From positions 1,934,884-1,998,883 of the forward strand of contig JBFWNU010000001.1 of NCBI GenBank assembly GCA_050250895.1: a stretch of DNA of 64,000 bases, read 5' to 3'. This document shows positions 14,689-32,810 of the stretch, in pieces. The translations under genes were made by a program, and so were the position numbers. Positions within the stretch are counted from its first letter, which is position 1; each line of letters begins with the position of its first letter. The notes below the pieces were generated by a model that saw only the letters and a list, made by a program, of their open reading frames with translations, was not told where the DNA came from and ran no database searches. This DNA comes from Vulcanimicrobiota bacterium. GTDB taxonomy: Bacteria; Vulcanimicrobiota; Xenobia; Xenobiales; JADMJV01.

Positions 14689-14736
14689 GCTGCGTGTGAA
14701 TTTCTTGAATCAGCTTGAGCGACCTGCCCGTCGTTA

Positions 14737-14822
14737 AAAAGAAGAGAGAACCGCACGGCTGCGCGGTTCTCTCTTGGTGGGTCGTGTAGGATTTGAACCT
14801 ACGACCACCTGATTAAAAGTCA
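14737..14822 (-). repeat. att site: displaced 3' 48 nt of tRNA-Lys plus terminator hairpin
   Basis: Matches 32692-32777 except GGCT vs GACT in hairpin loop. Confidence 0.95.
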
Positions 14823-14924
14823 CACTCGGTCTGTGACGCTAGATGCCGACCCGTGTCGAGAAGTGCCATTTGACGCCGTTTCGATGTCGCTCTGTCTGGT
14901 CTCGTTCCGGGTCGTGTCGGCTTG

Positions 14925-14965
14925 TTGGTCCCCAGCCGGTCCCCAGGAGGCATTCTTAGGGACCA
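14925..14965. promoter_or_regulatory. Putative integrase arm-type sites (left)
   Basis: GGTCCCCA at 14927 and 14938 (11-bp period) plus inverted variant at 14957-14965; same doublet at 32640/32651. Confidence 0.75.
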
Positions 14966-14980
14966 GACGAAGCGCCGCCC

Positions 14981-15955
14981 GTGCGATTGATATTTCCCGC
15001 TACCCTTCAACCAGTCCCGAACCTGAAAACCCGCGATGATAGTTTCGTCTTTCCTGATTTCCTAGAGATCGGGGCCGGAATCGCGTTGCACCGCCACCGC
15101 AAAGGCGACTTGCTACAGGAAGCGGCCCAGAACTATCACCAGCCCCCCGCGAATTTCTTTCTCCTACTCGAATCCGAACGGCTACTCAGCGACCTCAAGA
15201 CTCAGTGGCCGCGCGGAGTCGAGTTTCCGACCAACGAAAGAGTTCTGCACAAAGCCGCGATGAATTCGATGATGCGTCTACTCGTTTCACTCGTCCTGGC
15301 CGGCTACGTTTTCAATGGCAACCCTGCGCAACGCTTCTTTATCCAGGAGTCAGACACTGGGGGTTGGGGGATCGGTAGCTTCTTCACCAACCTTCCAGGG
15401 TATCGAGCGGTAAACATCAGCCTAGCGGAAAGCCCAGAGAGGTGGTGCGAGGAGACATTTCGACGCTGGTTCGACCTCCTGGCGCCGTACTATCGTCCAG
15501 AAATCGAATGCGAAGACCGTATTGGTATTGCGCTGAACTCATTCTGGCACGGGATGACGACACTCAAGTCAGACCAACAGGTTCTGTCCTACACGGTGGT
15601 CCTCGAAGCCCTCCTGGCCACCGGCTCGAACGAGATAACCCACCAGCTCGCTGAACGCGTAGCCTGCCTCTTGGCTACGGATGCGAGGGAGCGGCTTGCT
15701 CTCTACCACCGCACCAAAGGGCACTACAGGACCAGGAGCAACCTCGTTCATGGGAACCTCGCCAAGACCGGTCTGAAGGCTAGCGGTGCTAGGTGGGACC
15801 CGGCGGCCGTTCATGACCTGTTTACCCTGGCGCGCGGGGTTTTGCGAAAGGCCCTGGCCGACCCACCTTACTGCCAGCTTGTCAAAGCCAAGGACGACAA
15901 GCAACTGAACGAGTTCTTTCTAGAGCTGCTCTTCGGTGTTCGCGGACGCCAATAG
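14981..15955 (+). CDS. ApeA-like HEPN domain protein (putative RNase)
   Basis: LEALL...EITHQLAERVA...YRTRSNLVHG (Rx4H). Confidence 0.75.
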   Translation: MRLIFPATLQPVPNLKTRDDSFVFPDFLEIGAGIALHRHRKGDLLQEAAQNYHQPPANFFLLLESERLLSDLKTQWPRGVEFPTNERVLHKAAMNSMMRLLVSLVLAGYVFNGNPAQRFFIQESDTGGWGIGSFFTNLPGYRAVNISLAESPERWCEETFRRWFDLLAPYYRPEIECEDRIGIALNSFWHGMTTLKSDQQVLSYTVVLEALLATGSNEITHQLAERVACLLATDARERLALYHRTKGHYRTRSNLVHGNLAKTGLKASGARWDPAAVHDLFTLARGVLRKALADPPYCQLVKAKDDKQLNEFFLELLFGVRGRQ

Positions 15956-15996
15956 CCGCACGAAGACCGGAATGTATCATTACGGAGGTCCTGAGA

Positions 15997-16491
15997 ATGG
16001 ATGAAGTCAGCAAGATTCTAATAACTGCGATTGTCACCGCGATTTTTTCTGGGCTCTCGGCCGGCATAATGGTGCCACTTCTATCCGGCTGGTTCAACAA
16101 AACGTTCGATTTCTTCGGCTACAGACAGCAACAACTGTGGGACGCTCGCCAGAAGCTCTACGCCGAGATTGTCGGGTCTTTCACTAAAGCCAGACAGAAT
16201 CTTGACGTGTTCGAAGCCTCACAAACCGGGACGGAACAGCGTAACAAGGCCGTCAGACATTTCCGCAGAGCGGTGGAGTCAATGCGAACTGAACGTGACT
16301 CTTTAGCTTTACTCGCACCCTCGTCGGTGCGGGACGCATTTGCGGAGTTGCGCCGGACCGCCGAGCTGATATACGGAGGTTTAAAAGAGGTGCCAGACGG
16401 GTTCGAGTTGGACGAGCTGACCCGGAGCTTCTCGGAGGCTTACGACCCACTGCTCAGAGCAATGAGGGTCGATCTGGGTTTCGGAGAATGA
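15997..16491 (+). CDS. Hypothetical protein with N-terminal TM helix
   Basis: RBS GGAGG; hydrophobic N-terminus then helical domain. Confidence 0.7.
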   Translation: MDEVSKILITAIVTAIFSGLSAGIMVPLLSGWFNKTFDFFGYRQQQLWDARQKLYAEIVGSFTKARQNLDVFEASQTGTEQRNKAVRHFRRAVESMRTERDSLALLAPSSVRDAFAELRRTAELIYGGLKEVPDGFELDELTRSFSEAYDPLLRAMRVDLGFGE

Positions 16492-16500
16492 ACAAGCCGC

Positions 16501-17013
16501 TCACAGCGTTGAAGCCGTTATCCACCACTTCTTGTGGAAGTCGTTGAAGTCTTCCATCTGGCGGGTCGACACGCCCAGCCAGCCGCCCTCCCACTTTTCG
16601 TAGGCCGGCTTGCCCGTGGGGGTCTTTAGTTTCTCGGGCAGCGTGCGAATCAGGTAGACCGGGTTTTCGCCGGCCTCGAAGTCCTTGCCGAGCTGGTAGA
16701 AGTCCTGGCCAGACAGCTTGAAGCAAGCGCCCTTGCGGTATTCGAGGACAACCTCTTGATACGGCTCGGGGTGCTCTTTGACGACCAGGGCGGCCGCGGT
16801 GAAGAGCACGCGGGTCACGTCGGCGGGGCTCCGCTCGCCAGAAACAGACAGCAGGTCGACCACCAGCATTTCGCCTTTGGCCCGGAGCGAGACCTCGATG
16901 CCAGCGTTCCGCAGGTCATCGGCCAGCTCGGTGGCCAACTTCTTGCTGTAATCGTCGGCACAGCCGGTCAGCAGTATGGCCGCCAGCAGCAGCCCCTTCA
17001 TCCAGGTCTTCAA
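16501..17013 (-). CDS. Putative lipoprotein
   Basis: Lipobox LLTG|C; RBS GAGGGGG before TTG. Confidence 0.75.
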   Translation of the reverse strand: MKTWMKGLLLAAILLTGCADDYSKKLATELADDLRNAGIEVSLRAKGEMLVVDLLSVSGERSPADVTRVLFTAAALVVKEHPEPYQEVVLEYRKGACFKLSGQDFYQLGKDFEAGENPVYLIRTLPEKLKTPTGKPAYEKWEGGWLGVSTRQMEDFNDFHKKWWITASTL

Positions 17014-17078
17014 GCTTGGTTCCCCCTCTTGGCATTGAATCGTAGAGGGAGCTTATACGTAACCCGTCTGGAGGCCTG

Positions 17079-17273
17079 CTATTCCGACTGGTTGGGCATT
17101 TCTGCCCGCGCCCACGCTTCGATTTTCTGCCGAGCGCCATCGGGATGAGTCGTCAGCCAATCGTAAACGTCAGGGTCGAGCCTGGTTCGTAGAATGGGCG
17201 CCCCTTGCTGCGTGCCGGGATAGCCGCGGGGGTATTGTGGGTCAGGTCCGGGTTTTCCTCGTTGCTTTGTCAT
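17079..17273 (-). CDS. Small putative DNA-binding protein (ribbon-helix-helix-like)
   Basis: ILRTRLDPDVYDWL..ARQKIEAWARAE; divergent from operator-bearing promoter. Confidence 0.55.
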   Translation of the reverse strand: MTKQRGKPGPDPQYPRGYPGTQQGAPILRTRLDPDVYDWLTTHPDGARQKIEAWARAEMPNQSE

Positions 17274-17286
17274 GAAGACATCATAA

Positions 17287-17330
17287 CCTGTGTCACAGGG
17301 ATTGACAACACTGTGTCACAGTGTTAGGAT
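17287..17330 (+). promoter_or_regulatory. sigma70-type promoter with two palindromic operators
   Basis: TTGACA 17302-17307, 17 bp, TAGGAT 17325-17330; CTGTGTCACAG at 17288 and 17311. Confidence 0.8.
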
Positions 17331-17366
17331 GTGTATGCAAGAGAGATTCCACGGAGGTCAAACAGA

Positions 17367-17720
17367 ATGCGCGAAACCGTCACCCAGAAAGCTCACCGTC
17401 TCGTCGACAACTTCCGGGTCGTCCTGTTGGACAACCAGCCCGGCCTGGTCACCGCTGAGGTCATCGGCGACCACAGCACCTACACGGTGCGGTTTCGCCC
17501 CCACGGCGCCTTCTGCGGCTGCAAGTGGTTCCAGATGAAGGGCCACATCAAGCCCTGCAGCCACATCCTGGCCACCCGTCGGGCGATGGACGAGCCCGAG
17601 AGCCAGGAGCCGGTCAAGCGGCTGGCCGAGGCCCTACGGGCCAACCTGCCGGCCAAGAAGCCGCCCGTCGCGGTCACCGAGACGGAAGCCGACCTGCAGG
17701 CGCTCTTCAACTTCCGCTAG
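17367..17720 (+). CDS. SWIM zinc-finger protein
   Basis: TYTV...FCGC...PCSHILA (CxC-x-CxH); RBS GGAGG. Confidence 0.8.
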   Translation: MRETVTQKAHRLVDNFRVVLLDNQPGLVTAEVIGDHSTYTVRFRPHGAFCGCKWFQMKGHIKPCSHILATRRAMDEPESQEPVKRLAEALRANLPAKKPPVAVTETEADLQALFNFR

Positions 17721-17821
17721 CGACCGGGCCCGCAAGGGCCCAACCCCCTCGAGCCTCCTGTTTTCGAACCGTGAGGGCCCCGGCCCGGGTGGAGGCTCGT
17801 TTCTATTTCAGGAGGATTGCT

Positions 17822-18412
17822 ATGCTGCTCACCACCGCTCGCAAGCGTGAAATCGAAGCCACCGTCGAGGCCCTGCAGGCCCGTCACGGTGACCCGTCGG
17901 CCATCCCCGCCACCTACCTGGAGGAGGTGGTTAGAGCGGTGGGTTACCAGCTGGTCGACGCCGACCTGCCCGCGGGGGTGGCCGGCTGCTGCTACCCGCG
18001 GAGCCAGCGCATCTTGCTGAACCGCGACCTGGGCTCCATCCTGACCTACGACCGGGCCCCTCAGTTCCGCCTGGCCACACTGGCCCACGAGCTGGGTCAC
18101 GCGGTTCTGCACGAGCAGCTCATTTTGACCGGCCAGGCTCCAGCTGCAGTTATCGAGCCCGAGGCCCAGCACTTCGCGGCCGCGTTCCTGGTGCCCCGTC
18201 ACCTGGTCCTGGCGCGGCCCGAGGGGGCTCAGCTACTTCGAGCTCGTCGCGCGCGGTTCCGGTGGTCGTCGGGGCGTGTCTGGCGGAGCGTCCACCGACT
18301 GGCCGAGGTGTTTCAGGTGACCTCAACGCTGATGGCGTGGCGCCTCGCTGAACTTGGGGTGGTCGATGCTTGCGAGAAGCGGCCCTGTCGCTTGGTGCTT
18401 GCGGTTTGCTAA
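17822..18412 (+). CDS. ImmA/IrrE (M78) metallo-endopeptidase
   Basis: TLAHELGH and EPEAQHFAAAFLVP; RBS AGGAGG. Confidence 0.85.
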   Translation: MLLTTARKREIEATVEALQARHGDPSAIPATYLEEVVRAVGYQLVDADLPAGVAGCCYPRSQRILLNRDLGSILTYDRAPQFRLATLAHELGHAVLHEQLILTGQAPAAVIEPEAQHFAAAFLVPRHLVLARPEGAQLLRARRARFRWSSGRVWRSVHRLAEVFQVTSTLMAWRLAELGVVDACEKRPCRLVLAVC

Positions 18413-18472
18413 GAGCCGACCGGAACATCAGACTGGTGGAATGAGAATGGGTAAGTCGTTTCGAAGTTCCGC

Positions 18473-19732
18473 GTGATGAACATACGAGACATCGAGAATG
18501 CGTTCCAACCGGCAATAGAGGTCAAGGACCCGAAACGTTTCGCGGGTAGGAAGTCCTACGTGCAAGACGCATATCGGGCGCTTCTCTCTGAGGGAACGAA
18601 TATTGCGGTAGTTGGAAACAGAGGAATCGGAAAGTCTTCCCTTGCCCGCCAAATCGTGAGTATGGCGTCTGGACATGACGACCTTCTCAAAAAGCTGTCG
18701 ATTGACACAGACGCCCAGGCACCTGACTTCCTGGCAACCTATTTCGCGTGTGGCAACAGCGTTAGAACACTCGGCGATCTCCTAAACAGCTTATTGACGG
18801 ATAGCGACGCGTTGGGATCTTGGATCTATGACATTCCCAGCACAAAGACCATCATCGAGAAATACGCCCCAAAATTCAACGCCGGTTTCGCTTCCTTGGG
18901 GGGTGAGAAGTCTACGTCGACGACTTCCTCGAAGGCCATTCAACAACACGACGTCGAGTCGGTTTTTACCAATGTCGTTCGAGCCCTAGTCCAAGAATGT
19001 GTCGCTACCGACGGCCTGATAATCGTGGTCGATGAATTTGACCAAATCAAAGACCCGACTGGATTCGCATCCTTCCTAAAGTCCCTGGCGACGAACGTGC
19101 CTAAGGTTCGGTTTTGCATCGTTGGCGTGGCCCAGGACATTCAACAGCTGATGAAGGAACATGCCTCCGCCGACCGACTATTTTCGGGCTCGGTGCTGAC
19201 ACTTCCGCCGATGAATCCTGAGGAACTCACCGAGATTATCGAAATCGCCGAGTCCTCGATCAAGGGTAGCATTGTGTTCGACGAGAGTGCACGCCGAACG
19301 TTGGTCAAATTAGCCCAAGGACACCCTTACATGATTCACCTGATCGGAAAGGATGCTCTCAAGCAAGCTTTCCTAAAGAAAGACGAGACAATCACGCAGG
19401 CAGACATAGAAAGTGCGCTCCGAGGCATAGCCGAGAGGGGGACAGACCCAGTCTTAGAGGGTCGATACAAGAAGGCTGTCGCGTCATCACAGCATAGAGA
19501 GATAGTTCTTCGAGCGATGGCAAACTCCGTTTCTGGAGACGACGGGGAGATTCAGACCACCGCGGCATATCAACAGGCGTTGACTGAAGGAGTAGAAAAT
19601 TCCAGTCAATACGTAGGGCACTTGACGACTGAACAGTTCGGAGAGGAACTCGTGAAAGTCAGGGAGCGCTACTATCGTTTTCGGGATTCGCTCTTTCGAA
19701 CATACGTAACGCTTCGCCCACCGATCTTTTAA
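18473..19732 (+). CDS. Stand-alone AAA+/STAND-like ATPase
   Basis: FAGR, Walker A GNRGIGKS, Walker B IIVVDEFD, GHP motif; lower GC. Confidence 0.8.
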   Translation: MMNIRDIENAFQPAIEVKDPKRFAGRKSYVQDAYRALLSEGTNIAVVGNRGIGKSSLARQIVSMASGHDDLLKKLSIDTDAQAPDFLATYFACGNSVRTLGDLLNSLLTDSDALGSWIYDIPSTKTIIEKYAPKFNAGFASLGGEKSTSTTSSKAIQQHDVESVFTNVVRALVQECVATDGLIIVVDEFDQIKDPTGFASFLKSLATNVPKVRFCIVGVAQDIQQLMKEHASADRLFSGSVLTLPPMNPEELTEIIEIAESSIKGSIVFDESARRTLVKLAQGHPYMIHLIGKDALKQAFLKKDETITQADIESALRGIAERGTDPVLEGRYKKAVASSQHREIVLRAMANSVSGDDGEIQTTAAYQQALTEGVENSSQYVGHLTTEQFGEELVKVRERYYRFRDSLFRTYVTLRPPIF

Positions 19733-19802
19733 GCGAACCTCGACGCTGATGGCCTGAACTTGACGTGGTTTAAGCCTAGGAGAAGGTGCACAACGTGCTT
19801 TC

Positions 19803-21569
19803 TTAGCCCTCGGAGAATAGACGGCCTTGTTGATGTCGAGGCGCTTTCACCTGTAGCGGTGGCTTTTTGCTCCACCTCGGTAGTTTCAACGGTGCCTGAA
19901 CTTCCTTGCCTGAGAGCAGGTCGGCCACCGTCAGTATCTGTAGAGTAGGATAGCGGTCATTCCCCACGGGTGTGTAAAACCCCGCGGATGCTGCCTCTTT
20001 TACCATCGGCTTAGATGGTTCTTGGAGTGTTATCAGGACCCCGATTGGGGTCTTGCCGCGTTTGTTTTCGCGCTCGATCACACCGCGCAGGTCGCGCACG
20101 TCGCGTGAGGTCACCTTGCCGCTCTTGACCGAATACACAATGGCTTTGTCATCACCGGTTCCAGGCTCTTTGAAGAAGCCTCGTCCGTCGATTCCCTGGT
20201 CTGCACCCTTCTTTTGTTGGTCCCGGGTGACTTTGGCGCCCACCAGGCCTAACGCCCACCATTGGAACTGGTAACGATCTTCGGCGGCGAGAACCTTTGC
20301 GCTCTCCAGGTCTTTGGGTTCACCCAAAACTTTGTAGGGAGCCAGTGAGTCGGGGAAAGCCTCCTCGATACGATGCCGAATCAGGCTCACCGCCAGGTGG
20401 GTGATGTCAATTCCTATCCACCTGCGCTCCAAGTGCTCGGCAGCGGCTACTGCGGTGCCGCAGCCACAAAACGGGTCTAGCACGATGCCTTCGGGTGGGC
20501 AAGCCGAGGTGATAATGCGGGCGAGCAGTCCGAGGGGCTTCTGAGTCGGATAGCCGAGCCGCTCACCAGACGTTGGCCCTAGCCACGACACGTCTTCGTC
20601 GATTCCGTGCTCCAAGTCCCCGTAGTAGTAGCCTTTCGTGTATGGCTGATACGCCCAAATGTCCTGATATGGGGTTCCAAGGTCAGAGTCTTCTTCGAGA
20701 TAGACCTTGATCATCGGAATGCCGCCAGGCTTGGCCGGTAGCTTGATGTAACCGGCATCGAGCAAGGCATCAAGCTTCTTTCTGGTTGGCAAACTGTTGT
20801 CTATCCCAAGACGCTCGCAAACCTTTCGAGGAGGCGCCCACGCTCGATTGCGCTCGGTGGGATTGAAGCCCTTCCATGGCTTACCTGAGTCGCCGTAACG
20901 CGGGCCCGGTCCGCAGGGGTCGTTAAGTTTATACTGGCCATACTCGTCACGATACTTGAACCGTTCATCCACGTGAGCTTGAGGGAGGGGCATCTTCTGG
21001 GGCTCAAAGTAGCAATTGTCTGACTTGGCGTAGAAGAATATCGTGTCGTGAATCTGCCCGAAACGCTTGGTGTCGTTGTGGGTGTTGGTCCGCCGCCAGA
21101 TAATCTCGTTGCGGAAGTTCTGTGGGCCGAAGATGGCATCCAAGAGGAGCTTCAAGTAATGACTCGATGTGGGATCGCAGTGCAAAAATAGGCTTCCACG
21201 GGCTTTCAGGACTCTGTGCATCTCCACCAGTCGCGGCGCCATCATCGTTAGATAGGCCATGGCATCGCTTCGACCTAGATAATCTAGCAATGCTGAGAGC
21301 AACTGTCTGAGCTTCGACTCGCTCTGATCCATCATCTCTTCAAACGCGTGCTCGGCCTCCACCCCCCAACGCCAGGTATCTTCGAAAGCGGTTATTTGAG
21401 CGGTCGAAGTCTCGCCGCTGTGCTCCCGAAACAGCACATTGAAATCTGCCTTCTTGTTGAATGGCGGGTCGAGATAGATGAGGTCTATTGATTCAGCGTC
21501 TACATACTCGCGAAGAATGACGAGGTTATCGCCGATATACAGCTGATTGCACCAGTTTTGAAAAAGCAT
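19803..21569 (-). CDS. Beta-class N6/N4 DNA methyltransferase fused to C-terminal Mrr-like PD-(D/E)xK domain
   Basis: IYLDPPFN, YPTQKP, DPFCGCGT; C-terminal ADQGIDG..YSVKSG..VRDLRG. Confidence 0.85.
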   Translation of the reverse strand: MLFQNWCNQLYIGDNLVILREYVDAESIDLIYLDPPFNKKADFNVLFREHSGETSTAQITAFEDTWRWGVEAEHAFEEMMDQSESKLRQLLSALLDYLGRSDAMAYLTMMAPRLVEMHRVLKARGSLFLHCDPTSSHYLKLLLDAIFGPQNFRNEIIWRRTNTHNDTKRFGQIHDTIFFYAKSDNCYFEPQKMPLPQAHVDERFKYRDEYGQYKLNDPCGPGPRYGDSGKPWKGFNPTERNRAWAPPRKVCERLGIDNSLPTRKKLDALLDAGYIKLPAKPGGIPMIKVYLEEDSDLGTPYQDIWAYQPYTKGYYYGDLEHGIDEDVSWLGPTSGERLGYPTQKPLGLLARIITSACPPEGIVLDPFCGCGTAVAAAEHLERRWIGIDITHLAVSLIRHRIEEAFPDSLAPYKVLGEPKDLESAKVLAAEDRYQFQWWALGLVGAKVTRDQQKKGADQGIDGRGFFKEPGTGDDKAIVYSVKSGKVTSRDVRDLRGVIERENKRGKTPIGVLITLQEPSKPMVKEAASAGFYTPVGNDRYPTLQILTVADLLSGKEVQAPLKLPRWSKKPPLQVKAPRHQQGRLFSEG

Positions 21570-22007
21570 CAAACCCCCTGGGCGAAAACATGTTCGATGC
21601 CTTCGCAGTAGTCCCTCCTGGCGGTCTGGGCAGAGGGGCTTACTTTGGAAACGGGGGCGGTTTTGGGTAAACGTCGGCCCAGAAGCCCGCAATCAAAAGG
21701 CGCTTCCATCTCGGCTAACAGAAAAAGGTGGTTATTTATGTGCAGAAATTGCAGAAAAAGGGCCCGAGGATGCCGAGAAATACTCCAAGAAACCGTCACT
21801 TTTGCGCGATATTCGGCCAAAATCGTCGGAGAATGCTCCCAGTATCCACCGCTGTGCGAAACGGCCGGCGGCCCGGGAAGCACAAAGCCACCGTCACGAG
21901 CCATTAGGGGGTGGCGTGCTTCGTTCGGGTGGCCGACAACCGTTCGGTCAGGTCCCAGACCATCCCTGTCCCGGACCGTCACCGGGAAGGCGTCCAGTTA
22001 GCGAGCT

Positions 22008-26823: not shown

Positions 26824-27125
26824 CTGTTCTTCTTCCTTTCGGGTTTGGTTGAGACGCGAAGCGCCTCCGTAAAGGCCAGGGTGAGGCCGAGAACAAAGGC
26901 GTCCCAGCTTTCGGGCGTGTAGGCCCAGGGCTTGCCAGCTCCGCCGTGAGCCGACTTCCCAGCCTGGTGAGTGACCTTTTCGAAATCGCCTTCCGTCCAC
27001 CAACAGCCCTCCGCTTCGCACTGGTCGAGGATGCCGACAAACTTCTCTTTGCCGTCGACGTGAAGGGCGATGGTTTCCCGTTGGTTGTCGGGGTTGCGGT
27101 CCCACTTGAAAACGATCTGGTTCAC
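26820..27125 (-). CDS. Hypothetical protein
   Basis: RBS AGGAGG; ATGA overlap with next gene. Confidence 0.7.
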   Translation of the reverse strand: MNQIVFKWDRNPDNQRETIALHVDGKEKFVGILDQCEAEGCWWTEGDFEKVTHQAGKSAHGGAGKPWAYTPESWDAFVLGLTLAFTEALRVSTKPERKKNR

Positions 27126-27133
27126 GGGTCCTC

Positions 27134-27523
27134 CTAGAACGGGATGTCGTCAATCCCGAGGCCGTCGCTTTGCCTCGGTGGTTGGGGCTGCCGGCGAGGT
27201 TCCTGGGCCGGCGGGGCCTGCTGGGGTGGCGCCGCCTGCAGGTAGACCTGCAAGTCCGGGTCGCGGTCGTCGTTCTTCTGCTGGTTGGCGAAGACCAGCA
27301 CGCGAGCGCCGCCGAGGCGGCCAACGTAGTAGCGGGTTCCGTTCTTGGATTCGCGGGCCCAGAGGCCGCAGAGCGGGACCTTCGCGGGATAGGATTCGCT
27401 CATCGAGTTGCCTTTCTGCCCGCTTGGCACGGGCTTGGGTTTGGTGGGTGGAGTGGGGGTGGGTTGATTTAGTGGTCGGTAGAAGTCGATAGCAGCCTGA
27501 CGGGCCGCTCGTGAACGGTTCAT
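27134..27523 (-). CDS. Small SSB-like/DUF736-like protein with DDIPF tail (alternative start 27403)
   Basis: GLWARESKNGTRYYVGRL..DDRDPDLQVY; Q/P linker; C-terminal DDIPF. Confidence 0.65.
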   Translation of the reverse strand: MNRSRAARQAAIDFYRPLNQPTPTPPTKPKPVPSGQKGNSMSESYPAKVPLCGLWARESKNGTRYYVGRLGGARVLVFANQQKNDDRDPDLQVYLQAAPPQQAPPAQEPRRQPQPPRQSDGLGIDDIPF

Positions 27524-27771
27524 AGTTCCTCCAGGTGGGGTAGGATGGCCCGGCTGGCCGCCAGGTTCCACGGCGCGGGCTTCAGGGCGCAGGGCTTGGC
27601 CACGAAGTACTCGCGACCGCCGTAGGTGAAGGTCTCACCCCAAAAAGCTAGCTCGACATCCTCCACCAGCCTGGCCCGCCCGATGAGCTGGCCTTCAACG
27701 ACAAGGTCGACCAGGGCGACCACGGGCGGGGCTGGGATTTCTGGATACCAGCAAACAAAAGACACCTTCAT
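27520..27771 (-). CDS. Hypothetical protein
   Basis: ATGA overlaps on both sides. Confidence 0.6.
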   Translation of the reverse strand: MKVSFVCWYPEIPAPPVVALVDLVVEGQLIGRARLVEDVELAFWGETFTYGGREYFVAKPCALKPAPWNLAASRAILPHLEEL

Positions 27772-28619
27772 GCCGCCCCCCAACAGTCGACCGAAAGCGC
27801 CTGGTCGGCGAGGTCGAAGAGTCGCTTCAGGGGGCAGCACCTGCCTAGCGAGCCAGTTTCCATCTCCTCCTGGACGCGAGCGAAGGCTTCTCTGATAGCT
27901 TGCTGGAGTTTGTGGGGTGGTAGGGGGAGGTCTAGGAAGTCTTGTTTTCGCTTTTGCACATACCGCGGGGCCCGGCTCATCTTGCTGGGGGCCAGACGGG
28001 TAAGCAGCTTCTGAAGCCAGGAATCGAAGAGAATCTTCCCACCTCCCCCCTCTTGGGGGGTAAGGGGGGTACTGTCTTTATGTCTTTCCTTGTCTTTAGA
28101 CCCCTCGGAAAGGCTTTTGCCAGAAGGCTCAGACGGGGGTGAAAGGGGGGCCTGGAGGGAACCCTTTGTGGGGGCCTGGAGGGTACCCTTTCTGTGCCCT
28201 CCGGTATCCCCTTTCTCATGCGAAAGGGTTCCCGGAGCTACCCCCTTTTCTTGGTCTGAAAGGGGTCCCTCCGGTATCCCCTTTTCATCGGGTCGGGCCG
28301 TACGACTCGAACCCTTGGGGGTGTTGGGTGGTGGTGGCCAGTTCAAGCTGAGTTCACTCTTGGCGCCGCGGTGGGTGCCTTGAGCGTGTCGGTGAAGTAG
28401 GCCGGCGCTTGTCAGGCTCCGAAGAGCTGTGCGAATCACCTTCTTGGTGTGGCCCGTCAATGTCATCAGCTCAGCGACAGTGATACGCACCCGCTCAACC
28501 CTCCATCCCCAGGTTTCGCGCTCGATGATGTCCAGAACGTCGCGCTCTGAGCCACGCAGGCCCTGTTTCGCAAGGTGCCGCGGCCAATCGTTCGGCCGTT
28601 GATACCAACCGTGACTCAT
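27768..28619 (-). CDS. Phage replication initiator (lambda O-like N-terminal wHTH)
   Basis: LRGSERDVLDIIERETWGW...ITVAELMTLTG..VIRTALRSLTSAGLL; internal iteron-like repeats; coupled to DnaB. Confidence 0.8.
   Translation of the reverse strand: MSHGWYQRPNDWPRHLAKQGLRGSERDVLDIIERETWGWRVERVRITVAELMTLTGHTKKVIRTALRSLTSAGLLHRHAQGTHRGAKSELSLNWPPPPNTPKGSSRTARPDEKGIPEGPLSDQEKGVAPGTLSHEKGDTGGHRKGTLQAPTKGSLQAPLSPPSEPSGKSLSEGSKDKERHKDSTPLTPQEGGGGKILFDSWLQKLLTRLAPSKMSRAPRYVQKRKQDFLDLPLPPHKLQQAIREAFARVQEEMETGSLGRCCPLKRLFDLADQALSVDCWGAA
28141..28316. repeat. Iteron-like repeats; putative replication origin
   Basis: About six imperfect units ending in CCCTT(T), several of form AAAGGG-Nx-CCCTTT; GGGGCCTGGAGGGWACCCTTT x2; CCCTCCGGTATCCCCTTT x2. 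Confidence 0.65.
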
Positions 28620-30010
28620 TGGAGGTCGCCTCCGAAGTCAAGACTGTCCCAGCTCTCGTCTGGGACGGATTCGCAAACCTGCCGGGGCACAAGAGCCGGC
28701 TCAAACCGGGTGAGTCGTCCCACCCATCGAAGCCGGATGTTGACGAGCTCGCCGTTTCGGCGCTTGCGCACGTAGAGCCACGCCTCTTCTGGGTCGGCGT
28801 TCTTGCTGAACATCACCGGCCGATGGAGCATCAAGACCAGGTCGGCATCCTGTTCCAGGTGGCCCGACTCGCGAAGGTCGCTCAGCTGAGGGGTCTTGTC
28901 TGGGCGCCTTGTCACGTCGCGGCTCAGCTGACACAGCACGATGACGGCCAGGCCGGTGCGCCGAGATAAGGCCTGCAGGACCCTGCTCGCCTCGCTGGTC
29001 TGCTCATAGTCGCGCCGGCCGAGGTGGCCCAGGTGGTCGATGACCACCGCCTTGGCGTCGGGGTGCCGAATCACGAATCGCTCGATTTGACCCAGCACCG
29101 TGGCCAGCTCCTGGCCCGCGGGGCCCAGCTGGTCGAGGATGTAGAGCGGGCACCGGTCGCGCAGGCGCTCTTCCAGCTCGAGCGCCACGCCCGCTGAAGG
29201 CACGACCTCGCGGAGCTGGGCGACGTAGCGGCCGGCCAGTTCAGCGCCGGGCATCTCGCCGGACACGTAGAGCGTTGGCCCATGTTGGCCCGCGATGTGC
29301 TTTGCAAGAGCGCCCGTCAAAGCCGACTTGCCCATCGAGGGGCGTCCGGCGATGATGGTCATCGCGCCCAGCGGCAGGCCGCCGTTCTCATCGAGCGCCG
29401 GGAGCCCGGTAGTCAGGCCCGTCTTTGTGTCGGCGTTCTCCTGCAGTTCTCGGGCAAGCTCGGCCATGGCGTCGGCAATATGAACCGGCTCATGCCGAAG
29501 ACCGCGCCCTGTGGCCCTGACCAGGTCGTCAGCGACCCTAATGGCCAGGGCCGTCGCGTCAGCGTCAGGCGACCGCAGTTCGCTCAGCAAGTGCCGGGCA
29601 GCGCGCTCTATCTCGCGCCGCTGGGCCTGCTTGACCACCAGGTCGACCAGGGCGAAGGCCGCCGAGTCGGTTGAGTCTACATCGGTGGCCAGTACGGCCT
29701 GAAGCGCCTCTGGGTCGAGGTGCTCGGCCAGCAGGTGAGGGTGAACCCGGTGGCCTCGCTTGACCAGCTCCCGCAGGCCGCGATAGCCGCGCCTGGCGGC
29801 CAGGTCCGCGAAGTCTGATTCTACGGCGACCCGCAGAAGGTAGGCGGTCCGGTTCTCCGACTCGAGGGCGCAACGGATGGCGCGCCGTTCGGTGAGGGCG
29901 GCCGGGGACGTTTGCGCGTTGTCTTTGGATGGCGTAGTATGGTGGTGACGCCGTTTGTCACCCTTGCCCCCCTGGTCGCCAGCCTTCGGGGCTCTTTCAT
30001 TTTCGGGCAT
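28616..30010 (-). CDS. DnaB-like replicative helicase
   Basis: IIAGRPSMGKS, VIDHL, LCQLSR, LSDLRESGHLEQDAD, KRRNG. Confidence 0.9.
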   Translation of the reverse strand: MPENERAPKAGDQGGKGDKRRHHHTTPSKDNAQTSPAALTERRAIRCALESENRTAYLLRVAVESDFADLAARRGYRGLRELVKRGHRVHPHLLAEHLDPEALQAVLATDVDSTDSAAFALVDLVVKQAQRREIERAARHLLSELRSPDADATALAIRVADDLVRATGRGLRHEPVHIADAMAELARELQENADTKTGLTTGLPALDENGGLPLGAMTIIAGRPSMGKSALTGALAKHIAGQHGPTLYVSGEMPGAELAGRYVAQLREVVPSAGVALELEERLRDRCPLYILDQLGPAGQELATVLGQIERFVIRHPDAKAVVIDHLGHLGRRDYEQTSEASRVLQALSRRTGLAVIVLCQLSRDVTRRPDKTPQLSDLRESGHLEQDADLVLMLHRPVMFSKNADPEEAWLYVRKRRNGELVNIRLRWVGRLTRFEPALVPRQVCESVPDESWDSLDFGGDLQ

Positions 30011-30102
30011 CTTTCGTCCTTATGGCGGTGGAATCTGTAACTCCATCGTGTGATACCTCCTCACTGTCTTGACAGAAATTCAATCCGTCGGTCAAAAAAA
30101 AA

Positions 30103-30285
30103 TCAATCGCCTTCGAGTAGCCGCCGCAACCGACACAAAGGCACCAGCAGGCGCCGTCCAACTCGGATTGTGGGGATGTCCCCCCGACGGGCTGCAGCAT
30201 AGCTAGACTGGCGGCCTAGACCAAGCATTCGGCCGGCCTTTGGCACAGAAATGGCCAGGGGCTTCTCTTCGGGCTTGGCATTCAC
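30103..30285 (-). CDS. Excisionase/AlpA-like HTH
   Basis: ISVPKAGRMLGLGRQSSYAAARRGDIPTIRVGRRLLVP; GTGA overlap with cro. Confidence 0.85.
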   Translation of the reverse strand: MNAKPEEKPLAISVPKAGRMLGLGRQSSYAAARRGDIPTIRVGRRLLVPLCRLRRLLEGD

Positions 30286-30509
30286 GCCGAGGCCGCTTCC
30301 TGCTCGGTGGCCACCACCAGGGTTTCTACGGGTATGCCGGTGACCTTCGAAAGTCGCATGAGCACTCCCACGCTCACACCGATCACGCCCCCCATCTGCT
30401 GGTAAAAGGTGTCTTTGGTCACCCCGATTTTGTTGGCAAGCCAAACAAAGGTTCGACCTTCTCGCGCCTTCCAGCGCCGAAGCTCGCTCTGGTTGAGGCG
30501 ATACTGCAT
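30282..30509 (-). CDS. Cro-like XRE HTH regulator
   Basis: LANKIGVTKDTFYQ..LMRLSKVTGIPVETL; AGGAGG upstream (start may be TTG 30515). Confidence 0.75.
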   Translation of the reverse strand: MQYRLNQSELRRWKAREGRTFVWLANKIGVTKDTFYQQMGGVIGVSVGVLMRLSKVTGIPVETLVVATEQEAASA

Positions 30510-30545
30510 GTCCAAAGCTTCAAGCCTCCTCTCTCTTGATTTAAA

Positions 30546-30631
30546 AAGTTTCAAACTTAGTTTACCATTGTCTGGAGGTTTGTCAATCTGATATGGTAAA
30601 CTTGTTTGTATCATAAGTTTGGAACTTAGTT
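30546..30631. promoter_or_regulatory. Divergent promoter/operator switch
   Basis: AAGTTT(CA/GG)AACTTAGTT at 30546 and 30615; inverted AGTTTACCAT/ATGGTAAACT; minus-strand TTGACA-16-TAAACT. Confidence 0.7.
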
Positions 30632-30635
30632 AGAT

Positions 30636-31229
30636 ATGAACTTCAAACAAAGTTTTGGGCGGCGTTTACGCTCTGCCCGCAATGAGCGCGGGCTTTCGCA
30701 ACGCGAATTAGCCGAGCTTCTGGGGGTGAGTGCGGCCGTGGTTTCGGATTGGGAGGTCGCCAAGTCGAGTCCTCAGCTCGAACGGCTGGAGCAAATAGCT
30801 TCTCACCTGCAGAAGTCACCGGCCTGGTTTTTTGTCGAGGAGGACGCCGGTTCAAGGGGTGTTGAGGTCGCGGCAAGCTCGCCAGAGATGGTCGACCTTT
30901 TGAACAGCGCAGCAGATTTCTGTGAACGCGAAGGTCAACGGGCGAAACTCCACGCCGAGGCTTTCGCCTGCTTTCAAAGATACTTCGAAGCCGTCGGTTC
31001 GATGACTCTTGCAAGCCTGTCGCAGGAGCAAAAGGAGGCTTTGAGTTTCACGACCACCCAGAGGCTATTCGACGCGGGTCAAATGGAACCGGAGGTGATG
31101 GAGTTCGCCGACGATGGCCCGGGAGTGGTGATTACTGGGAGTGACCTGCTAAACACTATTGAGGCGCACCTTGCGGGCTCATTGAGGGAGTTGCGTCGTC
31201 TTGACGCAGGCCGTGGGGGTCAAGCATGA
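30636..31229 (+). CDS. XRE-family repressor (Stl/ImmR-like, no S24 domain evident)
   Basis: FGRRLRSARNERGLSQRELAELLGVSAAVVSDWE HTH. Confidence 0.85.
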   Translation: MNFKQSFGRRLRSARNERGLSQRELAELLGVSAAVVSDWEVAKSSPQLERLEQIASHLQKSPAWFFVEEDAGSRGVEVAASSPEMVDLLNSAADFCEREGQRAKLHAEAFACFQRYFEAVGSMTLASLSQEQKEALSFTTTQRLFDAGQMEPEVMEFADDGPGVVITGSDLLNTIEAHLAGSLRELRRLDAGRGGQA

Positions 31230-32413
31230 GAGGGCACATCCAGAAGCGGGGCAACGGTTACCGGGTCGAGATTCACATCGGCTACGACGAGCAAGGCAAG
31301 CGGATTCGCCACCGCCAGACACTCTCGACCAAGAAGGCGGCCGAGAAGTACATGCGTGCCAAGCTCGACGAGCTGGAGACCGAAGGCGGCATCCGCGCGA
31401 AGAGCCTCGAGACACTGGAAGCCTATCTCAAGCGGTGGCTAGAGGTGTCGGCCGCGCCCCGCGTCAGGCAGCGCACGCTGGAGGACTACACCGAGAAGCT
31501 TCGTGGCTACGTCTTCGAAACGCCGCTCGGCCGCAAGCCGCTCGCCACGGTCACGCCGAGCGACATCCAGGAGCTTTACGCATCGGTGCAGGCCCGAGTA
31601 AAGGCGTCAGGCCGTGGCAACGGCGTGACCTCGGTGAAGCGCCTTCACGCGGTGCTGAGGAGCGCCATTAACCAGGCGGTGAAGTGGCGTCTGCTCACTC
31701 AGAACGTCTGCCTGTTTGTCGACCTACCGAAACAAAATCGGGCCGATGACCCGTATGGCCGCCAGCACAAAAAGGAGGTCCTTCAGACAGAGGATTTCCC
31801 GGCCTTCATCCAGGCCGCCCTACAGGAAGAGCGCCTCGGGGCAATGTGGGTTCTGGCGCTGCAGACCGGCCTGCGCCCTGGTGAGTATCTGGGTCTTCAG
31901 TGGGCCGACTTCGGACCGAACCTTCGCCAGTTCACCGTCAACCGCGCCCTGGTCCGGGTGCGCACCGAGGACGGACAGGGTTGGCGGTTCGAGGAGCCCA
32001 AGACCCGCCGGAGCCGGCGAACGGTGGTGCTCGACACCGAGGTCATCTTCTTGCTCAAGCAGCATCGAACCCAGCAGAACGAGGAGCGTTTGGCCGCGGG
32101 TTCGGCCTACGAGGACCACGACCTGGTGTTCTGCAACGAGATCGGCGGGCCGCTCCACCAGCACAACCTATCTCAGAGGGTTTTCCCTCGCATCATCGAG
32201 CGGGCCGGCCTGTCGGGCAAGCTCACGCCTTACAGTTTGCGCCACAGCACGGCGACCCACTTGCTCCGGGCTCGCGAGAACCTCAAGATCGTTTCCGAGC
32301 TGCTCGGCCATAGCTCCATCAGCCTAACGGCCGATGTATACTCCCACGTGGCCCCGGACATGCTGGAAGGGGCAGCCAGCAAAATGGGAAGCGCGATGTT
32401 CGGCATGCAGTGA
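31226..32413 (+). CDS. int: Tyrosine integrase with N-terminal arm-binding domain
   Basis: TGLRPGE, PKT, YSLRHS, LGHS, DVYSH; adjacent to tRNA att. Confidence 0.95.
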   Translation: MRGHIQKRGNGYRVEIHIGYDEQGKRIRHRQTLSTKKAAEKYMRAKLDELETEGGIRAKSLETLEAYLKRWLEVSAAPRVRQRTLEDYTEKLRGYVFETPLGRKPLATVTPSDIQELYASVQARVKASGRGNGVTSVKRLHAVLRSAINQAVKWRLLTQNVCLFVDLPKQNRADDPYGRQHKKEVLQTEDFPAFIQAALQEERLGAMWVLALQTGLRPGEYLGLQWADFGPNLRQFTVNRALVRVRTEDGQGWRFEEPKTRRSRRTVVLDTEVIFLLKQHRTQQNEERLAAGSAYEDHDLVFCNEIGGPLHQHNLSQRVFPRIIERAGLSGKLTPYSLRHSTATHLLRARENLKIVSELLGHSSISLTADVYSHVAPDMLEGAASKMGSAMFGMQ

Positions 32414-32595
32414 AGGCGAGTTCATGCGCGGAAATGGTCCATATGAAATCGTTCAAGGCCCGACTCAAACTAGCTCAGCCAATCTGCCTCCACTGTCAGC
32501 AACCCCATCTTGACCCCGAGTTCAAGCCGGTGTCGTCGAATCTCTGTGGGTACTGTGCGATTGCCGTCTGGGAGGGGCCTCCCGAGAAAGACTAG
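32410..32595 (+). CDS. Small CxxC/CxxC protein
   Basis: CLHC...CGYC; GTGA overlap with integrase. Confidence 0.4.
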   Translation: MKASSCAEMVHMKSFKARLKLAQPICLHCQQPHLDPEFKPVSSNLCGYCAIAVWEGPPEKD

Positions 32596-32637
32596 AGCTG
32601 GCCCTGGATTGAGGGGGCCGTGGCCGGGATAGCCAAT

Positions 32638-32660
32638 TTGGTCCCCAATAGGTCCCCAGG
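32638..32660. promoter_or_regulatory. Putative integrase arm-type sites (right)
   Basis: TTGGTCCCCAATAGGTCCCCAGG vs TTGGTCCCCAGCCGGTCCCCAGG at 14925. Confidence 0.75.
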
Positions 32661-32691
32661 CCGGCCATCCTGGCCATGGTCTCCCCTCGCC

Positions 32692-32730
32692 AAAAGAAGA
32701 GAGAACCGCACGACTGCGCGGTTCTCTCTT
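32692..32730 (-). terminator. Intrinsic terminator after tRNA operon (duplicated at 14736-14775)
   Basis: AAGAGAGAACCGC...GCGGTTCTCTCTT hairpin followed by U-run on minus strand. Confidence 0.8.
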
Positions 32731-32804
32731 GGTGGGTCGTGTAGGATTTGAACCTACGACCACCTGATTAAAAGTCAGATGCTCTACCCCTGAGCTAACG
32801 ACCC
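32730..32804 (-). tRNA. tRNA-Lys (UUU), integration target
   Basis: GGGTCGTTAGCTCAG...CTGA CT TTT AA TCAG...GGTTCAAATCC..ACCA. Confidence 0.95.
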
Positions 32805-32810
32805 AGAAAG

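Follow-up and report, generated by a model that had tools for sequence, protein, structure and literature searches.

In Vibrio cholerae, the PLEs encode a tape measure protein (TMP), a tail assembly chaperone (TAC) and a baseplate hub that, according to passages of the report describing them, replace those of the helper phage ICP1 in chimeric tails, as shown experimentally (PMC12987554). The same source attributes tail-assembly interference to Rta of PLE11, and the legend of its Extended Data Fig. 10 refers to cf-PICIs with a predicted tmp, satellites found outside Vibrio. The EPIPs of Mycolicibacterium aichiense, as portrayed in sections of PMC12822802, carry a TMP, have tails of altered length, and encode a small terminase, a head-tail adaptor and stopper, a scaffold, a major capsid protein and a serine integrase. 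Spread by means of an own TMP on a borrowed helper has so far been shown only for the cholera-phage satellites. The original prediction for the locus analysed here had named PLEs and EPIPs as TMP-carrying satellites, and both precedents are real as far as these sections go; satellite-encoded TMPs and chimeric tails are already published, and the novelty of the locus had been over-rated. In the SatelliteFinder models for PICIs and cfPICIs, as set out in part of PMC10085698, tail genes are forbidden components, so that the element described below would be rejected by them.

The window, a 64,000-nucleotide stretch from the genome of an uncultivated bacterium of the soil phylum Vulcanimicrobiota, contains a 17,955-bp element, E1, at positions 14737-32777, in the 3' end of a tRNA-Lys gene. 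As originally claimed, it is intact and bounded by direct repeats of 86 nt each (spacing 17,955 bp, one mismatch), and it carries an integrase and a repressor. The right repeat overlaps tRNA-Lys(ttt) (32730-32804, minus strand), the first of five tRNAs. In a genome of the same genus, G001, homology extends across the tRNA cluster and att core, ends at window position 32693 and gives way to ordinary host genes, so that this site is unoccupied in G001. A single joint that goes back, from 32169 to 14732, with 41 letters on its short side, may be a misplaced repeated att; no excised E1 was seen among contigs that held a small share of the element. The features of E1 are as follows.

14737-14822, no strand: attL, 86-nt direct repeat, one mismatch to attR
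14981-15955, plus: cargo ORF, 324 aa; no Pfam or padloc match, one weak PHROG of unknown function
15997-16491, plus: cargo ORF, 164 aa; no matches
16501-17013, minus: cargo ORF, 170 aa; no matches, GC3 0.85
17367-17720, plus: 117-aa ORF with a weak SWIM zinc-finger signal (Pfam SWIM 17.2 bits, below the cut-off of 19.6; padloc SWIM_XIII 4.8e-5); homolog G005_13
17771-18412, plus: M78 (ImmA/IrrE-type) metallopeptidase, CapP/RmrA-like (PF06114 5e-10; padloc capP 1e-10)
18473-19732, plus: STAND-type P-loop NTPase (PF20703 nSTAND1 1e-12; phrog_6841 7e-30)
19803-21572, minus: N6/N4 DNA methyltransferase (PF01555 1e-39; padloc MTase_II 3e-55) with a C-terminal Mrr-like nuclease domain (Mrr_cat 19.8 bits, below the cut-off of 21)
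22008-22667, minus: G-T fusion chaperone (E1_10), 219 aa; TAC-like N-domain and T domain in one frame, after the TMP
22664-26293, minus: TMP, 1209 aa (PF20155 29 bits, cut-off 41; nine TMP PHROGs)
26293-26823, minus: tail assembly chaperone of G type (E1_12), 176 aa (blastp 8e-8 to G032_04; HMM family with pre-TMP genes)
26820-27125, minus: 101-aa ORF; no match in Pfam, PHROG or padloc
27134-27430, minus: 98-aa ORF ending in DDIPF; no family match in Pfam, PHROG or padloc
27520-27783, minus: 87-aa ORF; no match in Pfam, PHROG or padloc
27768-28619, minus: RepO-like replication initiator (28.3 bits against a cut-off of 28.7; phrog_678 2.6e-7)
28616-30010, minus: DnaB-type replicative helicase (PF03796, DnaB_C, 3e-47; phrog_19 1e-56)
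29997-30200, minus: 67-aa ORF, earlier called xis; no family match, name unsupported
30282-30515, minus: cro-like HTH regulator (weak, 24.8 bits against a cut-off of 27)
30636-31229, plus: cI-like HTH repressor (HTH_3 1.5e-16; no peptidase domain found)
31226-32413, plus: tyrosine integrase (PF00589 8e-24)
32692-32777, no strand: attR, 86-nt direct repeat overlapping the 3' part of tRNA-Lys

The leftward genes form the near-continuous, mostly overlapping run that had been predicted, with gaps of -16 to +8 nt except for the +89 nt between the 87-aa and 98-aa ORFs (67-aa ORF/DnaB -14, DnaB/RepO -4, RepO/87-aa ORF -16, 98-aa/101-aa ORF +8, 101-aa ORF/TAC -4, TAC/TMP -1, TMP/G-T -4). A promoter-like site (30586-30559) lies beside the cro-like gene, whose product is 41% identical to its counterpart in a second element, E2 (see below), and iteron-like repeats (28146-28288) lie inside the RepO-like gene. 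The DDIPF C-terminus of the 98-aa ORF resembles the tail motif of SSB proteins. The xis placed in this run by the original prediction found no backing: its ORF matched no Pfam or PHROG family and has flat codon-position GC (0.51/0.50/0.59). At the other end of the element, 7 kb of cargo (14981-21572), absent from the earlier description, is defence-like in its family matches.

In phage lambda, chaperone G, the T domain and the TMP (gpG/gpGT and gpH) act as one unit, and full prophages related to E1 likewise show, between G and TMP, the canonical -1-frame T ORF. The predicted chaperone-TMP-chaperone arrangement of E1 stands, the two flanking genes being homologous to those that occupy the chaperone and T positions in these prophages; both chaperones are genuine. 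Judged by its sequence, so is the TMP, which matches the nine TMP PHROGs at E-values of 2.7e-9 to 8e-5 and aligns, at 27-35% identity over some 900-1000 aa, with proteins that occupy the TMP position in full prophages; one locus with a TMP homolog, G007:C57, has PHROG-confirmed terminase, portal, MuF, protease, decoration and major head genes. The gene preceding the TMP can now be assigned to the family of G chaperones encoded by related full prophages, since E1_12 groups with their pre-TMP genes in an HMM family. In a Foldseek search of its predicted model (pLDDT 80) against BFVD, 11 of the 50 matches listed were annotated as tail assembly chaperone/protein or pre-tape-measure protein G, in the main tail assembly chaperones (best E-values among those listed, 9.7e-4 and 1.1e-3); against the PDB nothing was significant, with the HK97 chaperone 2ob9 ranking fifth at E 0.54.

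The gene after the TMP is also newly assigned, as an in-frame G-T fusion; related prophages use a -1 frameshift before the TMP. Residues 142-206 of E1_10 match -1-frame T ORFs of prophages G036 and G037 (E 5e-8 and 2e-8), and the C-domain matches the -1-frame pre-TMP T ORF in 14 full-phage loci and, at E 0.01, in a fifteenth, L053; the N-part matches a TAC HMM at E 0.016, and the C-part is found by a T-domain HMM. The same architecture occurs in G018a_31. Unlike in lambda, the T domain of E1 and of two compact relatives, G018:C67 and L082, thus lies in one frame with a second G-like domain, in a fused gene after the TMP, so that their G:GT ratio cannot be set by frameshifting. This form is confined to these three compact elements and occurs in none of the full-phage loci; a T-domain search matched 11 of 401 genomes of the phylum, two of which have the post-TMP fused form (E1 in G000, and G018). 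By these sequence comparisons, the G/TMP/G-T order is derived.

The TMP was the only structural-family match when the 18 ORFs of E1 were scanned against Pfam and PHROG; families of capsid, portal, terminase, tube, baseplate and lysis proteins were absent, in agreement with the gene absences reported initially, and a tail-tip gene is missing too. A small terminase, a cos or pac site and a capsid-remodelling gene were not recognisable in E1. In the host genome, which is 99.6% complete, neither a large terminase nor an HK97 capsid or portal turned up convincingly, no full prophage was detected, and the two TMPs were all that tblastn with prophage proteins of its relatives recovered. Neither a helper nor a packaging signal or particle was seen for E1. 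There are no head genes, yet an intact TMP and two chaperones are present, forming on one leftward operon a complete set for the initiation of tail assembly, and the spread of E1 therefore most likely depends on a borrowed helper virus. That E1 is a helper-dependent phage satellite with a lambdoid/PICI-like backbone, building tails on its own TMP, has in our judgement slightly better than an even chance of being right. The original tail-hijacking satellite reading thus keeps its anatomy, its tail cassette and its precedents, and loses the xis and part of its claim to novelty.

Under the satellite reading, infection by, or induction of, a helper siphovirus related to G036/L081-type prophages would lead to derepression, excision and replication of E1. 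The E1 TMP, covered with the element's own G and G-T, would be loaded onto the helper tail tip, and the T domain would recruit helper tube protein. The resulting tails would measure about 180 nm, a length that is arithmetic only (1209 residues x 0.15 nm). The helper terminase would package E1 DNA into helper heads via a putative cos or pac site. The benefit might lie in evading TMP-directed exclusion or defence, in a changed delivery of DNA, or in the spoiling of helper tails.

An account that we consider unlikely makes E1 a defective prophage remnant, in which deletions took the head and tube genes and left the TMP cassette as a functionless leftover that moves, if at all, by the integrase. 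Against simple decay, support comes from a second, diverged element of nearly equal size in this genome, six more att-bounded relatives, purifying selection and the derived gene order, to which the intact att sites and the tight joining of the replication genes with TAC, TMP and G-T (overlaps of 1-4 nt) can be added. E2 (17,782 bp, contig C8) has the same layout at protein identities of 27-45%. Across 40 genomes of the order there were 18 TMP loci, seven of them att-bounded compact elements and one a compact element with one end unknown; an eighth att-bounded element came from a metagenome. Five of the eight bounded elements measure 17,655-18,340 bp (mean 17,990 bp, SD 287) and have little in common beyond integrase and TMP; two others measure 13.2-13.4 kb and the last 26.3 kb, a spread that is in keeping with decay. 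All compact elements were found by TMP search, so that their all keeping a TMP is ascertainment and not evidence. In IMG/VR, none of 11 loci was a compact element, and L045, L047 and L050 were full-phage contigs.

The TMP is full-length in eight of nine compact elements, which speaks against a remnant, and split over two frames in G004, which speaks for one; the T domain was not detectable in six of the nine. No tube or tip gene fragments flank the TMP in the compact elements scanned, whereas G016:C192, a true remnant in which decay looks different, retains 423 aa of a TMP next to broken capsid fragments. Two compact elements, G018:C67 and L082, have a small terminase (phrog_51, 2e-12 and 2e-15), and two a head-protease/scaffold-like gene; in L082 the small terminase directly adjoins the TMP, as a single deletion from the large terminase through the chaperone would give. 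Also in favour of a remnant, replication and regulator modules are of ordinary temperate-phage type, some (G013_30 and G013_31) common to compact elements and full prophages.

Between G018:C67 and L082, a pair that excludes E1, TMP, G-T and TerS are under purifying selection, with dN/dS of 0.20 for the TMP (1051 codons, dS 0.32), 0.15 for G-T and 0.195 for TerS (integrase, 0.23), values that argue against functionless leftovers. Where E1 was compared with related-strain contigs, 29 differences are listed within its TMP and G-T genes, and 19 of them fall on third codon positions, an excess pointing the same way (a further 275 differences lie beyond those listed). A tree built from the N-terminal 480 residues of the TMPs shows those of compact elements interspersed with those of full phages (8 changes, against a mean of 7.8 on shuffling). 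The E1 TMP is sister to two of full-phage type, G036 and L081 (SH-aLRT 96), and each compact-element TMP has a full-phage one, not another compact one, as its closest relative. This pattern, which a remnant would show, is compatible both with recurrent origin from prophages and with recurrent capture from helpers.

It is also improbable, in our estimation, that E1 is a defence island that is itself not packaged and whose TMP, G and G-T are decoys poisoning siphovirus tail assembly. Its M78 CapP-like peptidase, STAND NTPase and methyltransferase fused to an Mrr-like domain suit such a role, as do the lack of a packaging gene or recognised packaging site in E1 and of a helper in the genome, and tail-assembly interference is a known defence theme (abstract of PMC11364771; for PLE11 Rta, PMC12987554). 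However, the small terminase adjoining the TMP cassette in close relatives points to packaging; an own replicon, an excision-type integrase and size clustering are traits of transmissible elements; and a complete, co-adapted set of G, TMP and G-T exceeds what a decoy needs. Defence is, moreover, compatible with the satellite reading, PLE doing both. Recruitment of the 1209-aa protein outside tails (for example, in a membrane or DNA-transfer role of a non-viral mobile element), or E1 as an autonomous minimal virus whose structural genes escape recognition, could draw on the long hydrophobic Gly/Ala-rich stretches of the TMP and on six ORFs without family assignment (324, 164, 170, 101, 98 and 87 aa) but is very improbable, given homologs at the canonical TMP position of real phage modules, a retained T domain, unassigned ORFs that at about 2.8 kb together are too little for capsid, portal and terminase, and no conjugation ATPase or relaxase in Pfam and PHROG scans of the ORFs.

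As a satellite, E1 would resemble PICIs and SaPIs in its order of integrase, divergent repressor/cro and replication genes, with cargo at the far end, and in being an island at a tRNA or att site (10-18 kb in that group), a small terminase being present in its relatives G018:C67 and L082. It differs in having no TerS, capsid-morphogenesis gene or supported AlpA/Xis, and in replicating with DnaB and RepO, where PICIs usually have a primase-replicase. With the EPIPs and the tmp-bearing cf-PICIs, as the sources excerpted above describe them, E1 shares a TMP of its own, in the latter case outside Vibrio. Unlike E1, cf-PICIs build capsids for themselves (capsid, portal, terminase, connectors), and the TerS, adaptor, stopper, scaffold, capsid and serine integrase of EPIPs have no counterpart in it. 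PLEs (PLE1, PLE4 and PLE11), whose chimeric tails were demonstrated by experiment and whose published description is the basis of comparison here, are like E1 integrative elements of ~18 kb without capsid genes and with their own TMP and chaperone. In contrast to PLEs, E1 has no detected baseplate-hub homolog, its backbone is lambdoid (cI/cro, DnaB, RepO) and not built of PLE core genes, its chaperone is split into a G and an in-frame G-T protein flanking the TMP, and its helper would presumably be a siphovirus, that of PLEs being a myovirus. The host phyla are unrelated, and, if the satellite reading is true, E1 would represent a variant of TMP-carrying satellites in Eremiobacterota/Vulcanimicrobiota.

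The element E1 is real and intact. It is bounded by 86-nt direct repeats that differ by one mismatch and are spaced 17,955 bp apart, the right one overlapping the 3' part of tRNA-Lys(ttt), with which a Lys-Arg-His-Arg-Pro tRNA cluster begins. In G001, a genome of the same genus, homology to the window spans the tRNA cluster and the att core, ends at window position 32693 and is followed by ordinary host genes, indicating that the G001 site is unoccupied and that the E1 repeat is a true boundary. The repeats and this empty site confirm the intact 17,955-bp element of the original prediction. The features of E1 considered here are:

14737-14822, left direct repeat
32692-32777, right direct repeat
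21573-22007, non-coding gap of 435 nt between the G-T gene and the methyltransferase gene
27134-27430, minus strand, 98-aa ORF ending in ...GLGIDDIPF
28146-28288, iteron-like repeats (24 nt x 1.9 and 36 nt x 2.7) within the RepO-like gene
29997-30200, ORF originally called xis
30103-30270, minus strand, frame within ORF 30103-30444 that overlaps the supposed xis and encodes ...RRGDIPTIRVGRRLLVP...

The tRNA-Lys 3' end used by E1 also carries a full prophage in a related genome (G008:C5, ~71,414-109,506; loci L023, L024, L089 and L091), which measures 38,009 bp and has 87-nt repeats. Its integrase is just 27% identical to that of E1, and the site therefore serves two integrase types. Among activated-sludge contigs (coded runs X1 and X2) compared with window positions 14000-33500, one joins 32169 back to 14732, with a short side of 41 letters; this joint may reflect a circular or tandem form or a misplacement of the repeated att, and the two contig-only runs of one sample (element shares 0.13 and 0.06) gave no usable evidence of excised E1.

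The 18 ORFs of E1, with starts of the small ones guided by GC3, were scanned against Pfam and PHROGs. As in PICIs, the integrase, here a tyrosine recombinase, lies at one end with the att sites; it is accompanied by a cI-like HTH protein (HTH_3, 1.5e-16) and by a divergent cro-like HTH, the match of the latter being weak. The cro-like gene opens a leftward series comprising a 67-aa ORF, DnaB, a RepO-like initiator, ORFs of 87, 98 and 101 aa and, finally, ORFs of 176 aa (E1_12, the chaperone preceding the TMP), 1209 aa (the TMP) and 219 aa (E1_10, the chaperone following it). From DnaB to the last gene the junctions measure -4, -16, +89, +8, -4, -1 and -4 nt; with five of the seven negative, the near-continuous run of mostly overlapping genes described originally is borne out by measurement. 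The original description passed over the left 7 kb of cargo, which comprises three unknown ORFs, a SWIM-like small ORF, an M78 (CapP/RmrA-like) peptidase, a STAND NTPase and a methyltransferase with an Mrr-like domain. The non-coding gap beside the methyltransferase gene is skipped or replaced in a related strain's contig (joint 21675 to 22010).

E1 has its own replication module and origin, as do PICIs, with DnaB and a RepO-like initiator in place of the usual primase-replicase type. In lambda the replication origin lies inside gene O, of which the position of the iteron-like repeats is reminiscent. The end of the 98-aa ORF resembles the C-terminal tip of bacterial SSB, and the protein may be a recruiter of SSB-binding proteins. 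The xis assignment is unsupported, the ORF at 29997-30200 having no family match in Pfam or PHROG. The overlapping frame looks excisionase/AlpA-like by eye; the enclosing ORF 30103-30444 had no PHROG match, and codon-position GC does not favour the full ORF. With Pfam and PHROG, none of the 18 ORFs could be assigned to a capsid, portal, terminase, tube, baseplate or lysis family, in agreement with the predicted lack of recognisable head and packaging genes. E1 is accordingly without the head, packaging, complete tail and lysis modules of an intact temperate prophage, in contrast to the 38,009-bp G008 prophage at the same tRNA-Lys site. What E1 does combine is integration at tRNA-Lys, a cI/cro-type switch, its own replicon and one operon linking the replication genes to G, TMP and G-T.

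Model matches of the TMP are weak by themselves (PF20155, 29 bits, under the gathering score of 41; nine TMP PHROGs, E 2.7e-9 to 8e-5; 135 phage records annotated as TMP in tblastn, covering only aa ~100-300); the decisive evidence is comparative. Over ~900-1000 aa the protein is 27-35% identical to proteins of G007, G008, G013 and G036 that occupy, in complete tail modules, the TMP position between chaperone and tip genes. The homolog on G007:C57 (32% identity, residues 61-996), for example, is found at the expected place, downstream of terminase, portal, MuF-like, protease, decoration and major head genes (PHROG-confirmed) and two small genes, and upstream of tip-like genes. Comparable full modules are present in G008 (two loci), G012, G013, G036, G037, G032 and the IMG/VR contigs examined. 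TMP homologs occur in 7 of the 15 other genomes of the family and in 15 of the 40 genomes of the order, that of E1 (G000) included.

E1_12 adjoins the TMP and matches the pre-TMP gene of G032 (E 8e-8). The pre-TMP genes of G036, G037 and G008 belong to its HMM family, as do the two genes flanking the TMP in the compact element G018:C67. The AlphaFold model of E1_12 (pLDDT 80) consists of a beta-hairpin followed by helices. In a Foldseek search of BFVD, 11 of the 50 matches listed were named tail assembly chaperone/protein or pre-tape-measure protein G; the named matches were mainly chaperones, with probabilities up to 1.0 and E-values of ~1e-3 at best, and only one among those listed reached E <= 0.001. 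Against the PDB nothing was found at E <= 0.001, the HK97 chaperone 2ob9 ranking fifth (E 0.54).

The N-domain of E1_10 has a similar hairpin-plus-helices fold (TAC HMM, E 0.016), and its C-domain matches the small -1-frame ORF that prophages G036 and G037 carry between their chaperone and TMP genes (E 2e-8 to 5e-8). With an HMM of the T domain, the same kind of ORF, upstream and overlapping, was recovered from 14 full-phage loci and, at E 0.01, from a further one, which identifies the C-domain as the T component of the classic G/GT pair. The related full phages produce this domain by -1 frameshift upstream of the TMP, whereas in E1, G018:C67 and the metagenomic locus L082 it is fused in frame to a G-like domain in a separate gene directly after the TMP; the 1-nt overlap of E1_12 and the TMP leaves no room for a T frame between them. 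The T-domain profile matched 11 of 401 genomes of the phylum, with the post-TMP fused form in E1 and G018 only. The order chaperone, TMP, chaperone was thus read correctly and is, more exactly, a frameshift-free G, TMP, G-T cassette with homology to the G and T of full prophages. Several searches were negative: the two-domain model of E1_10 (pLDDT 70, pTM 0.45) had no Foldseek match in BFVD, a protein homology search with E1_10 returned itself only, tblastn of both chaperones against 50,697 phage records gave no match, and pairwise BLAST among E1_12, E1_10 and the G007 chaperone was not significant (E 0.027-0.34). The predicted complex of the E1 T domain (aa 110-219) with the putative G036 tube protein scored 0.00, giving no verdict on the pair. 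The putative tube proteins owe their name to gene position and an Atlas look-alike search (0.95-0.97 to clusters named tail tube); their profile had no match among PDB sequences.

The genome of E1 carries a second element of the same layout, E2 (G000:C8:242431-260260; loci L003/L004), with 17,782 bp between 48-nt repeats at tRNA-Arg(cct). Its gene order repeats that of E1 (int, cI, cro, xis-like, DnaB, RepO-like, small ORFs, a 1208-aa TMP, cargo) at only 27-45% protein identity, and none of its 17 ORFs scanned is a head or packaging gene. The E2 interior also contains a second integrase-like gene and a tRNA-Glu.

We sorted 18 TMP loci of the order by repeats, tRNAs and gene content. Seven are att-bounded compact elements (E1, E2, G004, G005, G009, G017 and G018:C67); G018:C38 is compact with one end at the contig start, eight have full structural modules, G016 is a remnant and the G019 contig is too short to judge. 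A metagenome scan added an eighth bounded compact element, L082. Five of the eight measure 17,655, 17,782, 17,955, 18,216 and 18,340 bp (mean 17,990, SD 287), the others 13,202, 13,435 and 26,256 bp, and the eight use eight different tRNA genes. Some compact elements carry accessory genes: TerS in G018:C67 and L082 (phrog_51, 2e-12 and 2e-15; Pfam Terminase_2, 24.6 bits, just below the cut-off of 26.1) and a head-protease/scaffold-like gene in G018:C38 and G009. For G005 and G017 the check relied chiefly on blastp with the full-prophage proteins, together with terminase and capsid family searches of the whole genomes, in which nothing on their contigs matched; the portal profile phrog_113 was uninformative, matching nothing even in control genomes. 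All counts exclude a short G098 contig and the distant TMP matches of the low-GC family f13 (G047, G053, G062 and G065), for which the GC3-based gene caller is unsuitable. Among viral contigs (IMG/VR), a single-protein scan found no relative and an alignment scan found 11 loci, the three examined being full-phage contigs and the one of 18,099 bp a low-GC phage fragment.

The TMP at G004:C69:57875-60658 (L020/L021), which belongs to the 17,655-bp compact element, is divided between two overlapping frames (695 and 244 aa), a split that could be due to frameshift, assembly error or inactivation. The remnant on G016:C192 (~57,900-64,100; L036/L037), with a 423-aa TMP fragment, a protease, a decoration gene and broken capsid pieces, gives a picture of decay. 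At G036:C6:16210-41684 (L030/L031), 88-nt repeats enclose head and tail genes in just 25.4 kb; the second repeat coincides exactly with the contig end, and the terminase-like product, at 286 aa, is short. A small phage, a defective phage or an assembly effect could account for this locus.

The TMPs of G018:C67 and L082 are 92% identical while the replication modules and sizes differ, and the ancestor of the two was thus probably already compact. Between them, Nei-Gojobori dN/dS is 0.20 for the TMP (1051 codons, dS 0.32), 0.15 for G-T, 0.195 for TerS and 0.23 for the integrase; two full-phage-type TMP pairs gave 0.12 and 0.42. One activated-sludge sample contained contigs ~90-97% similar to pieces over most of E1. 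In the TMP and G-T genes, 19 of the 29 differences listed fall in third codon positions (p ~4e-4 versus one third); a further 275 differences lie outside those listed.

E1 is most likely a satellite, and on balance we favour, with moderate confidence, a helper-dependent one that mounts its own TMP on helper tails. A siphovirus resembling G036/L081 would derepress E1; the E1 TMP, with its own chaperones, would be mounted on the helper tip complex, and the T domain would recruit helper tube subunits. The resulting tails would be ~180 nm long (1209 x 0.15 nm, helical rise), and E1 would be packaged by helper heads. Several findings count against the satellite reading. In a quick ML tree of the first 480 TMP residues (27 rows), the E1 TMP is sister to those of G036 and L081, which belong to full-phage-type modules (SH-aLRT 96), and the TMPs of compact elements are interspersed among those of full phages (8 changes versus a shuffled mean of 7.8), suggesting either that satellites repeatedly take helper TMP cassettes or that compact elements repeatedly arise from prophages. 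The constant presence of a TMP in compact elements reflects ascertainment, since they were found with the TMP as query.

The helper prophage sought in the genome of E1 itself did not turn up: phrog_2 gave only ~21-bit matches, PF05065 and PF04860 none, and tblastn of the relatives' prophage proteins recovered only the two TMPs. Neither TerS nor a recognised packaging site is present in E1. A cassette acting purely as a defensive decoy is conceivable, if unlikely. That E1 is inert prophage debris we consider improbable as well, given that its layout recurs in the diverged E2 at nearly equal size in the same genome. Any other reading is very improbable. A broader proposal, doubtful when taken as a whole, extends the satellite reading to a class of capsid-less 'tape-measure satellites', so far unrecognised and excluded by the rules of current satellite finders. 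Its members would track helpers by swapping TAC-TMP cassettes, would have replaced the frameshift-controlled G/GT with two genes flanking the ruler, and would have unit lengths quantised at ~13.3, 18.0 and 26.3 kb (4x, 3x and 2x giving 52.5-55.0 kb) through packaging of multimers in unmodified helper heads and not through capsid shrinking. The integer-multiple reading of sizes is post hoc and speculation only, since the 38-kb full prophage that shares the E1 site would point to 2 x 18 kb instead.

Should these elements prove to be satellites, the manipulation of tail assembly would not be peculiar to Vibrio PLEs and would extend, on a PICI-like backbone, to a barely cultivated soil and sludge phylum. 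They are probably under-counted, because standard detection models forbid tail genes and reject them. The in-frame G-T after the TMP offers a natural test of the reasons for which the G/GT frameshift is retained in nearly all long-tailed phages, and the narrow size classes offer a testable handle on the packaging of capsid-less satellites.

By analogy, PLE is the closest functional precedent for E1. According to a 2026 Nature paper (PMC12987554), the TMP, TAC and baseplate hub of PLE replace those of ICP1 in chimeric tails, and other putative satellites have predicted tmp genes. E1 encodes a TMP and TAC, no baseplate hub was recognised in it (Pfam/PHROG), and by Pfam/PHROG annotation its backbone appears different from one of PLE core genes (capR, repA, nixI and others). 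EPIPs (PMC12822802) encode a TMP alongside TerS, adaptor, stopper, scaffold, capsid protein and a serine integrase; the TMP is the sole feature in common, the E1 integrase being a tyrosine recombinase. The capsid, portal, large terminase and head-tail connectors that cf-PICIs encode are all missing from E1. Its backbone is similar to that of PICIs, although their TerS or capsid-morphogenesis gene is not found in E1, TerS being present in its relatives G018:C67 and L082. The SatelliteFinder PICI and cfPICI models forbid tail genes (PMC10085698), and E1 has a TMP and two chaperones; with tail genes forbidden and TerS and capsid-morphogenesis genes absent, E1 lies outside every defined family. 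A literature search at the level of abstracts found no satellites in Eremiobacterota. Satellites with their own TMP were already published in 2025-2026; what is new in E1 is the phylum, the capsid-less PICI-like backbone, the frameshift-free G/TMP/G-T cassette and the recurrent size of ~18 kb.
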